Shown here: positions 5,163 through 28,127 of the stretch, in pieces
Layout: each line of letters starts with the position of its first letter
How positions within the stretch are numbered: the first letter of the stretch is position 1
NCBI GenBank assembly: GCA_043815105.1
Contig: JBDRJI010000030.1
Location: 1 to 31,140, forward strand
Source of the DNA: an archaeon
GTDB lineage: Archaea; Nanobdellota; Nanobdellia; Pacearchaeales; GW2011-AR1
Direction of reading: 5' to 3'
DNA length: 31,140 nt
Notes under the pieces: generated by a model
Database searches by the model: none
What the model saw: only the letters and a program-made list of their open reading frames with translations
What the model was told of the DNA's origin: nothing
Made by a program: the position numbers and the translations under genes

Positions 5163-5279
5163 GAGCCTGTAGCTCAGCCTGGTTAGAGCGCCAGTCTTAT
5201 AAGTCTGCAGTCCTTCGGGATTGTATTAGCTTTCGTCTAAGAAAGCTGGAGGCCCGGGGTTCAAATCCCCGCAGGCTCA
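5163..5279 (+). tRNA. tRNA-Ile(UAU) with 42-nt BHB intron at 37/38 (5202-5243)
   Basis: GAGCCTG/CAGGCTC acceptor, CCAGT-CT TAT A^A-GCTGG arm, CGGGG TTCAAAT CCCCG T-arm. BHB central helix CTTA (32-35) pairs with intron TAAG; the bulges are TA^A and AA^A. Confidence 0.92.
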
Positions 5280-25274: not shown

Positions 25275-25332
25275 TGATTTTTTTTATAGCTTATTATGCT
25301 TCGGTAGCTCAGCAGGTAGAGCGCACGGCTGT

Positions 25333-25829
25333 AGGACATTGTTTAATGAAAGACAAGAGAACTTATGAGGATAGAAAAGATTATCTCATAAGGGCGGTTG
25401 CCAAGAGACGACGGAAAATTCGTTTGTTGGCGATAGAACACCTCGGTGGGAAATGTATGCGTTGCGGGTATTCAAAATATCCGGAAGTGCTTGAATTTCA
25501 TCACAAGAACCCTGCGAACAAAGAATTCAATGTTTCTCGAAAGGGACATTGCAGAAGTTGGGAGCGGGTCAAGAAGGAAATTGGAAAGTGTGTTTTGCTA
25601 TGTGCAAATTGTCATAGGGAAATACACGTTGAACATAAGTTAGCAGCTCTCAAGGGAAACTTTGAGATGAACAGCGAGTAAATTCAGGGAAACCTAGAAC
25701 AGGCAATCCTGAGCCAAGCTTTCGTGAAAAGTTCATGATTGAAGGTGCAGAGACTAGACACTTGCTGCCTAAGGTGGAGACACTATGGTAATGGTATAGT
25801 CCGACTCTCCAAGGGATTGGAGTAAGGTG
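25333..25829 (+). mobile_element. Group I self-splicing intron (497 nt) carrying an HNH ORF
   Basis: Follows an exon U and ends in G. IGS GTTAGCAGC 25639-25647; P2 TCTCAAGG-GAAA-CTTTGAGA; P3 CAGCGAGT/ACTTGCTG; P4 TTCAGG/CCTGAG; P7 GACTA/TAGTC; P9 CTCCAA-GGGA-TTGGAG. Confidence 0.92.
25346..25681 (+). CDS. HNH endonuclease, putative homing endonuclease (111 aa)
   Basis: GGKCMRCGY, LEFHHKNP, CVLLCANCHREIH. The track's start at 25274 runs through the tRNA exon; the real start is likely ATG 25346. Confidence 0.88.
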   Translation: MKDKRTYEDRKDYLIRAVAKRRRKIRLLAIEHLGGKCMRCGYSKYPEVLEFHHKNPANKEFNVSRKGHCRSWERVKKEIGKCVLLCANCHREIHVEHKLAALKGNFEMNSE

Positions 25830-25850
25830 TAACCGTGATGTCGGAGGTTC

Positions 25851-26010
25851 GAGTCCTCCCCGAAGCGTAGCTTAGTAAGACATCGAACCGACGACGTCGG
25901 AGGCGAAGGATTCGCTTCGAGCAACACTAAATTTTGAATCTTGTTGCGAAATGCAAATTCTGAGTAGAGTCCTCCCCGAAGCGTAGCTTAGTAAGACATC
26001 GAACCGACGA
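25851..26010 (+). repeat. Perfect 44-bp direct repeat (25851-25894 and 25967-26010)
   Basis: GAGTCCTCCCCGAAGCGTAGCTTAGTAAGACATCGAACCGACGA occurs twice with period 116. It comprises the last 17 nt of the tRNA plus 27 nt of trailer. Confidence 0.95.
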
Positions 26011-27044: not shown

Positions 27045-28127
27045 TTAACTTAAATCATCTAAGCCGAGTTCGTTGACGCTGATTCGTCTTTCTTCACTAT
27101 CGAAGCGACTGGAATTTTTCCCGAGGATGTAAGGGGATTTTACTCCCGTCATAATTGTAATGACTCTTACTCTTCCCTGGAATTCTTTGTTGACCCTTGC
27201 TCCGATGATAACCTGCGCCTCTGGCGACAAATTCTCGGTTACGAGTCTTCCGATACTATCGAATTCTTCAAGTTTCAAATCAGGACCGCACGTAATGTGA
27301 ATCAGTGCGCCAGTCGCACCTCTGTAATCTACATCCAATAATGGATGTGTCAGGGCCTGCTGTACCGCTGCATCTACTCGCGCGTTCGAGTTATCCTCGC
27401 CGATACCAATTACCGCTACGTCGCCGTTCTTCATAATTGAAGATACGTCTGCATAGTCTAAATTAATTAGCGATGGAAGAGTGATTGTTTCTACAATACC
27501 CTTAATCATCGTGGAGACCAACTCGTTCGCAACTGCGAAAGCTTGTTCCATTGGTAACTGACCAGCAATATCGACTAATCGATTATTATCTAATACAATT
27601 ACCGTATCGACGGATTCTCTTAATTCTTGAAGACCGAACTCTGCCTTGTCGATTCTTGCTTTTTCTGCCTCAAAGGGCATCGTAACTACCGCGATTACTA
27701 CCGCGCCTGCTTCCTTAGCTAATTGAGCAACTACTGGAATGGACCCAGTTCCGGATCCGCCTCCCATACCAGCCAGAACAAAAACCATATCCGAATTCGA
27801 AACAGCTTTTTTCAAGTCAGTAAGAGATTCCTTAGCCGCTTCTCTTCCTTTCTTCGGGTATCCTCCGCATCCTAAACCTCGTGTCAATTCTTTACCTATA
27901 AGAATTTTCTCGTCGGTCTTTGTAATAGATAGGTGAAGTGCGTCGGTGTTGATACCGTAAATTGTCGCACCGCTGATACCTTTGTTGAAAAGCCAGGTAG
28001 CCATGTTACATCCACATCCACCACATCCAAAAACTTTAATGTTGGCCTTTCCAGCCTTTAAACCCTCGAAGTTAATAGAATTCGCTTCCGCAGTTTGTAT
28101 CGCTTCTCTTGCAAAATCTAATGGCAT
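27045..28127 (-). CDS. ftsZ: Cell division protein FtsZ
   Basis: GCGGCGCN, NTD, GMGGGSGTG tubulin signature, LDNNRL, INLDYADV. Confidence 0.97.
   Translation of the reverse strand: MPLDFAREAIQTAEANSINFEGLKAGKANIKVFGCGGCGCNMATWLFNKGISGATIYGINTDALHLSITKTDEKILIGKELTRGLGCGGYPKKGREAAKESLTDLKKAVSNSDMVFVLAGMGGGSGTGSIPVVAQLAKEAGAVVIAVVTMPFEAEKARIDKAEFGLQELRESVDTVIVLDNNRLVDIAGQLPMEQAFAVANELVSTMIKGIVETITLPSLINLDYADVSSIMKNGDVAVIGIGEDNSNARVDAAVQQALTHPLLDVDYRGATGALIHITCGPDLKLEEFDSIGRLVTENLSPEAQVIIGARVNKEFQGRVRVITIMTGVKSPYILGKNSSRFDSEERRISVNELGLDDLS

Follow-up and report, generated by a model that had tools for sequence, protein, structure and literature searches.

Group I introns have been described from tRNA genes of bacteria and plastids and, in Archaea, from rRNA genes. 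The 39 archaeal group I introns covered by Nawrocki, Jones & Eddy 2018 (PMC6125680) all lie in rRNA genes, with IA3 and IB4 as the listed subgroups. Williams 2020 (bioRxiv 10.1101/2020.01.27.920355) reported 21 bacterial tRNA settings, with a seed alignment that includes 'Pam37.Asn.4Ug', and dismissed as mis-binning the single archaeal match, from a Pacearchaeota, among 5,292 split tRNAs. A 2025 preprint on tRNA introns of Patescibacteria is cited in PMC12641178. The literature accessible to us treats the introns of archaeal tRNA genes as bulge-helix-bulge (BHB) introns cut by protein and accepts archaeal group I introns for rRNA genes only; in a limited literature search, we found no paper accepting that a tRNA gene of an archaeon carries a group I intron. 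Here we analyse a stretch of 31,140 nucleotides, contig JBDRJI010000030.1 of assembly GCA_043815105.1 (hereafter the window), from an archaeon of the lineage Nanobdellota; Nanobdellia; Pacearchaeales; GW2011-AR1, labelled Pacearchaeota or Nanoarchaeota at NCBI. Its tRNA-Asn(GUU) gene is split between positions 35 and 36 by an intron of 497 nt. An original prediction, made from the letters of the window alone, had proposed that a group I intron which splices itself lies at this place. Our analysis makes it highly probable that this is a mobile, self-splicing, tRNA-type (IC3-like) group I intron in the only tRNA-Asn(GUU) gene found in this DPANN genome, the case for splicing coming from the anatomy of the intron.

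A group I intron in the anticodon of tRNA-Asn

The split gene occupies positions 25298-25867 of the + strand, where all features of the intron described below also lie, and consists of two halves of 35 nt (25298-25332) and 38 nt (25830-25867), 497 nt apart. The 5' exon runs from G1 to U35, ends in GGCUGU and supplies the 5' side of an archaeal-type G1-C72 acceptor stem; its limits were set with ARAGORN, introns allowed, and by comparison of the exons of 40 loci. The 3' exon runs from U36 to the discriminator G73, starts with UAACC and encodes no CCA. Joining the exons gives the anticodon loop CUGUUAA and hence the anticodon GUU, and ARAGORN with long introns allowed returned a tRNA-Asn(gtt) with a 497-nt intron and exactly these bounds. 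The intron itself (25333-25829) starts with A directly after U35 and ends with the omega-G, the boundaries U25332 and G25829 being read directly. The two halves, the U and G at the borders and the GUU anticodon were thus predicted correctly.

We searched the intron with covariance models. The Rfam model RF00028 (Intron_gpI) matches 25621-25823 on the + strand with 65.1 bits (E 1.5e-14), above the curated gathering score of 50 bits, and the match spans the full model (positions 1-253). In a search of the whole 724-kb genome with RF00028, this intron was the only group I match (E 8.3e-17). Same-site homologues were found in 40 other loci.

Homologous introns were gathered from relatives and by a pattern scan of species-representative genomes, and 39 cores were aligned. 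The helices written for the window (50 pairs) were then counted on this alignment, using as controls the same helices with their 3' partners slid by 1-3 columns, and shuffled alignments. Pairing cells amounted to 94.1%, against 30-47% in the slid controls. Changes on both sides of a pair occurred in 21 of the 50 pairs (210 cells in all), and the covariation score was 0.304 compared with 0.03-0.08 in the slid controls and 0.123 in the shuffles, of which 0 in 500 reached the observed value. Compensation was seen in P2, P3, P8 and P9, and no variation in P4, P6 and P7, the catalytic centre. With the model match, the helices, the U.G pair at the splice site, the guide sequence and the omega-G all present, the intron is confirmed as a group I intron, as the original prediction had it.

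The internal guide sequence GUUAGCAGC (25639-25647) is composed of a P10 part, GUUA (25639-25642), and a P1 part, GCAGC (25643-25647). The end of the 5' exon, GCUGU (25328-25332), forms the 5' strand of P1 with GCAGC, and U25332 meets G25643 there in a wobble at the 5' splice site; P10 consists of GUUA and the four nucleotides that open the 3' exon, UAAC (25830-25833). Both pairings are kept in all family members, the guide sequence TTAGCAGC is invariant in the 39 introns, and so is the G in the column of the omega-G (25829), the last nucleotide of the intron. The prediction of a guide paired at nine positions, with a U-G at the splice site, holds as regards the 9-nt guide and the wobble; P1, however, has 5 bp, since covariation shows that U25648 pairs within P2 and not in P1. 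A direct reading further gives a P1 extension of 7 bp (P1a), in which UGUUUAA (25340-25346) pairs with UUGAACA (25629-25635). An open reading frame (ORF) lies in the loop of about 280 nt that P1a closes; in an ORF-less relative (L117), a short hairpin takes the place of P1a.

The core follows the guide directly. P2 (25648-25655 with 25660-25667) is a hairpin of 8 bp with a GAAA loop at 25656-25659, and all eight of its pairs show compensatory changes; P3 (25672-25678 with 25761-25767) has three pairs changed on both sides. P4 (25684-25689 with 25707-25712) is invariant and pairs in 100% of cells, as does the 3-bp hairpin P5 (25693-25695 with 25701-25703), which has one covarying pair. The invariant, 100% paired P6 (25713-25715 with 25744-25746) encloses a variable P6a hairpin, seen in the fold, within 25713-25746. 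P7 is formed by 25750 and 25752-25755 with 25798-25802 (GAGACU at 25750-25755 with AGUCC) and is again invariant and 100% paired in the 39 introns; by analogy with Tetrahymena P7, we take G25752-C25801 to be the guanosine-binding pair. P8 (25768-25776 with 25781-25788) has three covarying pairs, a GAGA loop and, by direct reading, the 11-nt tetraloop-receptor motif CCUAAG...UAUGG. P9 (25807-25812 with 25817-25822) is a hairpin of 6 bp, five of which covary, with a GGGA tetraloop. The five helices that the original prediction had paired by eye (P2, P3, P4, P7 and P9) and its GNRA loops on P2 and P9 are therefore all there. Both strings of the core, GGCAATCCTGAGCC and GGTGCAGAGACT, occur in the window and are unchanged across the 39 relatives. 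Folding the core alone gave a centroid structure with P2, P3, P4, P5, P6a, P9 and part of P8.

Recognition of the split gene by tRNA finders

The gene at 25298-25867 was missed by ARAGORN under default settings and by the Rfam tRNA model, and ARAGORN named the split tRNA-Asn genes of relatives Tyr, Thr or Arg, bearing out the earlier suspicion that standard callers would overlook or misname it. In L023, L036, L051, L065, L076 and L082, the intron was placed 2 nt off, giving tRNA-Thr, tRNA-Arg or tRNA-Tyr; L122 was likewise misnamed, through a misplacement of another kind. When the U-1/omega-G boundaries are applied, all seven are tRNA-Asn(GUU) genes split at 35/36. tRNAscan-SE 2.0 is, by its own account, not designed for the detection of group I introns. 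Missing or misnaming this gene makes DPANN genomes look as if they were without tRNA-Asn.

An HNH homing-endonuclease ORF in the P1 loop

The loop of P1 holds an ORF of 111 aa (25346-25681), which terminates at the invariant UAA of J3/4. Its last 14 codons (KLAALKGNFEMNSE) are at the same time the guide sequence, P2 and the 5' strand of P3. The protein carries the HNH (beta-beta-alpha-metal) motif as GGKCMRCGY...LEFHH...CANCHREIH, in which both the CxxC...CxxC zinc ligands and a catalytic His are present. Nine PHROG families match it, most of them annotated as HNH, among them phrog_2255 (the best, E 9.3e-27) and phrog_3106; NCBIfam has no model for it. A large protein collection yielded 622 homologues, many of them from Pacearchaeota or Woesearchaeota on contigs of up to 857 kb. 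The archaeal records are named 'hypothetical protein' or 'McrA', names under which this HNH gene lies hidden in hundreds of metagenomic records.

Eight intact archaeal copies were compared. Non-synonymous differences per site (pN) ranged from 0.10 to 0.19 against synonymous differences (pS) of 0.6-0.97, which is near saturation, and the ratio of the corresponding rates (dN/dS) was 0.04-0.16 where it could be estimated. This low non-synonymous relative to synonymous divergence points to purifying selection on the HNH protein.

In archaeal copies, the ORF runs in frame through the guide, P2 and P3 to the UAA of J3/4, whereas bacterial ORFs use another frame there. In three introns from Omnitrophota and Planctomycetia (L024, L033 and L059), the HNH ORFs pass the J3/4 UAA in another frame and encode proteins of 136-160 aa, and those of L024 and L059 extend through P3-P8 of the ribozyme, so that the overlap of coding and catalytic sequence differs between the two domains of life.

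The host is an archaeon with BHB introns

Upstream of the tRNA-Asn gene, the contig encodes aIF2-beta, aIF1A, a KH protein of the KRR1/PNO1 type, FttA (aCPSF1), a proteasome subunit, TrmB and a presenilin-type peptidase; downstream lie FtsZ, a DHH protein and an amidase. Over the whole locus, the GC content stays even. The genome encodes RtcB and EndA (104 bits, with a model that matches archaeal controls only), and ARAGORN with introns allowed found short introns in several of its other tRNAs. One of them is a tRNA-Ile with the rare UAU anticodon in the window itself (5163-5279), with a 42-nt intron at 37/38. As originally predicted, this intron fits a canonical BHB, with a CUUA/UAAG central helix (4/4 central and 3/3 outer pairs) and 3-nt bulges.

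The exons of the split tRNA-Asn tell the same story. Across the 40 loci, exon type tracks the domain label without exception: archaeal exons form G1-C72 and encode no CCA, and all 17 bacterial copies have U1-A72, most of them with an encoded CCA. Gene order is shared as well. As in the window, a KH-protein gene precedes the interrupted tRNA-Asn, with aIF2-beta close by, on a Pacearchaeota scaffold of 565 kb (L061), and the same KH-protein/tRNA-Asn order is found on a 99-kb Woesearchaeota contig (L081); on a closed Omnitrophota chromosome, tRNA-Asn comes after dnaX and recR. The promoter, the exon sequences and a nearby nitroreductase gene also recur in independent assemblies of the same genus, in which the tRNA-Asn is without the intron. 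The host genome is genuinely archaeal, of a DPANN lineage that also uses BHB/EndA introns, and with archaeal exons, gene order shared with archaeal assemblies and even composition, the locus is no chimeric join with a bacterial contig.

Two further observations concern the surroundings of the gene. The stretch directly 3' of the tRNA (25868-25990) is GC-rich and palindromic (...CGACGACGTCGGAGGCGAAGGATTCGCTTCGAG...) and has matches at many separate sites across the genus, frequently at several within one genome, which suggests a small hairpin module that occurs repeatedly. The FtsZ gene (27045-28127, - strand) encodes a first glycine-rich box, KVFGCGGCGCN, with three cysteines.

Distribution of the intron among archaea

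We examined 49 genomes of the window's genus. In most of them, the match to the promoter and 5' exon abuts the match to the 3' exon. Among the 16 loci of the genus that were fetched, 13 are uninterrupted tRNA-Asn genes and 3 have introns of 30-48 nt at about 37/38. These last are tRNA-Asn(GUU) genes, L136 (G010:C11:3600-3900), L137 (G019:C22:2920-3220) and L145 (G027:C5:44020-44600), whose introns are presumably of the BHB kind; one of them was called Tyr by ARAGORN. Within the genus, the group I element was found only in the source genome of the window (G000), in G033 and in G028.

The intron of G033 has no ORF, measures 218 nt and has a core 91% identical to that of the window. G028 carries a 5'-truncated copy (L112, also L005 and L129; G028:C64:1-750) with the guide, the full core, in which P6 bears a long insert, and the tRNA-Asn 3' exon, and no 5' exon; no 5' half matching this copy was found in the G028 genome, and we do not put trans-splicing forward for it. 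The truncated copy stands directly after a complete tRNA-Met, and the N-terminal half of its HNH-like ORF is a different one.

In the rest of the order, the element is present in G039 and G040, and the pattern scan of species-representative genomes found 22 further archaeal-labelled genomes with the intron, on scaffolds of up to 565 kb. The ORFs of L021 and L073 are frameshifted or truncated, and many copies have none. Since the tRNA-Asn gene is uninterrupted in most members of the genus, the intron is a sporadic, mobile gain. Empty sites side by side with intact, decayed and ORF-less copies are the pattern that would be expected from a homing-endonuclease element. With this locus and more than 20 further archaeal genomes, the group I intron of archaeal tRNA genes is seen to be real, recurrent and recently mobile.

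Relatives of the intron in Bacteria

The same-site intron was also found in 17 bacterial-labelled genomes, 16 of them with clearly the same core and one, the single Patescibacteria copy, very divergent. The carriers as listed are ten Omnitrophota (four of them closed chromosomes), three Planctomycetia, two Spirochaetia, two unclassified and one Patescibacteria; these counts cover species-representative genomes, and Planctomycetota and Spirochaetota are labels of metagenome-assembled genomes (MAGs). Bacterial copies that bear an ORF encode a homologous HNH protein, with 53-61% identity to the archaeal one in the six bacterial copies compared. This homology of both core and HNH protein in Bacteria and Archaea means that the intron family has crossed domains at least once, and it documents a mobile element family common to both.

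A tree of the cores placed 14 bacterial copies in one group (support 88/92), two others (L100 and L121) with an archaeal copy (87/89), and the Patescibacteria copy on a very long branch. Rooting with tRNA-Leu introns put the root among Omnitrophota-type copies with weak support, and rooting with tRNA-Leu and tRNA-Gln introns together likewise gave long branches and weak support. Monophyly of the archaeal copies was not rejected by the approximately unbiased (AU) test (p 0.28). The phylogeny thus grouped most bacterial homologues with one another and indicated no source in the candidate phyla radiation (CPR). The original prediction had suggested a possible acquisition from co-occurring CPR bacteria; with carriers that are mostly Omnitrophota and a lone, very divergent Patescibacteria copy, a CPR origin is not supported. 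That prediction had also mentioned 35/36 tRNA-Asn introns from Patescibacteria. A 2025 preprint by Nakagawa et al. reportedly concerns Patescibacteria tRNA introns.

Proposed splicing mechanism and rival explanations

The anatomy of the intron suggests how it would be removed and spread. In the precursor, the guide (25639-25647) would form P1 with the last bases of the 5' exon, setting U35 in the U.G wobble, and free guanosine bound in P7 would attack after U25332. The GUUA of the guide would then hold the UAAC of the 3' exon as P10, the omega-G (25829) would take the same site, and the exons would be joined into the CUGUUAA loop. The HNH protein of the P1 loop would cut intron-less tRNA-Asn genes, and repair would copy the intron in (homing). 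As the anticodon arm of tRNA-Asn is near-identical in Bacteria and Archaea, the same intron family is at home in both. Catalysis in vivo and cleavage of the target by the HNH protein are what we infer from these features.

Some observations weigh against this scheme. The folding energy by itself is unexceptional (z -1.12). P1 is short, with 5 bp, no covariation was seen in it in the family alignment, and hosts with a GACUGU exon keep the GCAGC guide, and the A x C mismatch that results is uncompensated. The match of the protein to Pfam HNH (PF01844), at 19.6 bits, falls just below the cut-off of 21.4. The source genome is 83.5% complete, which leaves room for a second tRNA-Asn. No RNA run among the sequence runs searched contains the source organism, and at most 8% of the sampled words of the stretch occur in any one DNA run; the four metatranscriptomes that we examined contain relatives only. 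In one aquatic metatranscriptome, contigs of relatives include an unspliced, ORF-less precursor (exon, 26 intron bases, guide and core). Another contig of relatives joins 25332 to 25830, a form that spliced RNA and an intron-less allele would explain equally well, with carry-over of DNA as a possibility.

Could the intron have reached this contig through an error of assembly or binning, a tRNA contig of CPR or Omnitrophota origin having been joined to archaeal DNA by mistake or placed in the same bin? Mis-binning was suspected by Williams 2020 (bioRxiv 10.1101/2020.01.27.920355) for Pacearchaeota RBG_16_35_8, the intron family is common in bacteria, and the source genome is a MAG of 110 contigs. 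However, the tRNA sits inside a 31-kb contig with archaeal markers upstream and unchanged GC across it, its archaeal-type exons are unlike those of every bacterial copy, and its promoter, exons and nitroreductase neighbour recur around an intron-less tRNA in independent assemblies of the genus. The 22 further archaeal MAGs with the intron, on scaffolds of up to 565 kb, and the HNH homologues on Pacearchaeota contigs of up to 857 kb speak against it too. Archaeal exons, neighbours and gene order on long scaffolds remove this explanation, which we hold to be extremely improbable. Nor does it seem likely that the intron is a non-catalytic group I relic that the host's EndA and RtcB remove at a BHB motif. 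A transition from group I to BHB introns has reportedly been proposed by Tocchini-Valentini et al. This genome has both enzymes and other tRNAs with short introns, including a tRNA-Ile that fits the canonical BHB, and tRNA-Asn genes of the same genus have introns of 30-48 nt at about 37/38. At the splice sites of the window's intron, strict BHB geometry nevertheless allows pairing at 1/4 central, 0/3 outer and 1/3 inner positions, and archaeal relatives have 0-1 outer pairs, compared with 4/4 central and 3/3 outer pairs in the tRNA-Ile control. The whole catalytic core, the guide, the U.G and the omega-G are kept, with P4, P6 and P7 invariant and the other helices compensating, none of which a relic cut by protein would need, and bacterial members, which are without EndA, have the same architecture. 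Removal by EndA and RtcB is thus very improbable.

A gene disabled by its intron, its work being done by another, uninterrupted tRNA-Asn that the assembly lacks, is just as improbable. The incompleteness of the genome would allow for it, and several tRNAs are missing from the ARAGORN list. The check for a second tRNA-Asn found only this one in the 83.5% complete assembly, however, and none in addition to the split gene in the four intron-bearing genomes that were checked (G000, G033, G040 and G073), one of which has a 565-kb scaffold; other genomes of the genus have one tRNA-Asn locus. The exons, core and ORF are moreover intact and conserved. As no second tRNA-Asn came to light in these four genomes, the interrupted gene would have to be spliced.

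Self-splicing of a mobile group I intron remains the reading that we favour, and we lean slightly towards a broader proposal, in which one element, ribozyme plus HNH protein, would move between Omnitrophota-like ultra-small bacteria and DPANN archaea, helped by the near-identical anticodon arm of tRNA-Asn. Decoding of Asn in these archaea would then depend on self-splicing, and their sisters would use no intron, or one cut by protein, in the same gene. If this is true, the genus offers a natural system for the replacement of group I by BHB introns in archaea. As its tRNA-Asn genes are without an intron, with a short intron at about 37/38 (presumably cut by protein) or with a group I intron, such a replacement becomes testable within one genus.

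Comparison with known introns

The closest described systems are bacterial. The Asn.4Ug introns of Williams 2020 share with the window the same tRNA, the 35/36 site, the U-1/omega-G boundaries and a tRNA-type core, and the Omnitrophota members found here also share the HNH ORF in the P1 loop. With 64-79% core identity and 53-61% HNH identity to archaeal copies, those from Omnitrophota, Planctomycetota and Spirochaetota are clear homologues. Unlike these bacterial introns, that of the window has an archaeal host and archaeal-type exons, and its ORF ends in frame at the UAA of J3/4.

The small core without P5abc and the insertion in the anticodon loop are common to the window, the cyanobacterial and plastid tRNA-Leu(UAA) introns and the Azoarcus tRNA-Ile intron (IC3). 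The Azoarcus intron also has a GAAA L2 and an 11-nt receptor in P8, as in the window, and is not known to carry an ORF. From the guide sequence to the omega-G, the core of the window measures 191 nt, against an IC3 expectation of about 190-200 nt. The resemblance of core strings to the trnL(UAA) intron, noticed in the original prediction, is upheld: GGCAAUCCUGAGCCAAGC and GGUGCAGAGACU of the window match those of two cyanobacterial tRNA-Leu introns (L031 and L042), and the placement in IC3 is made by resemblance to these two. The tRNA-Leu introns differ in tRNA and site (34/35), are separated from the Asn family by a very long branch and, in the cyanobacterial examples fetched, are 261-262 nt long, too short for an ORF of 111 aa. 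Taken together, these likenesses suggest a tRNA-type, IC3-like intron of the cyanobacterial tRNA-Leu and Azoarcus kind.

The group I introns of archaeal rRNA genes likewise occur in DPANN lineages (Pacearchaeota, Woesearchaeota and Micrarchaeota); the one described here is instead of the tRNA type and lies in a tRNA gene. The original prediction had named rRNA genes as the place of archaeal group I introns, and that is where they have been published (PMC6125680); introns of bacterial tRNA-Asn genes at 35/36, which it had also invoked, do exist. Relatives gave other group I matches (among them L004 and L015), of which at least one, L004, lies in a 23S rRNA gene (G047:C38), a known setting in DPANN, with a second match on the same contig.

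Archaeal BHB introns, removed by EndA, are found in the same host and, within the genus, even in the same gene (tRNA-Asn, 30-48 nt, at about 37/38). Unlike them, the window's intron has no BHB at its splice sites and comprises 497 nt with a full ribozyme core. The class to which it belongs, a tRNA-type group I intron with an HNH protein at Asn 35/36, is known; what is new, and well supported by the comparisons above, is its occurrence in an archaeal tRNA, in a lineage that uses BHB introns, with plain signs of recent movement and in a family shared with bacteria.

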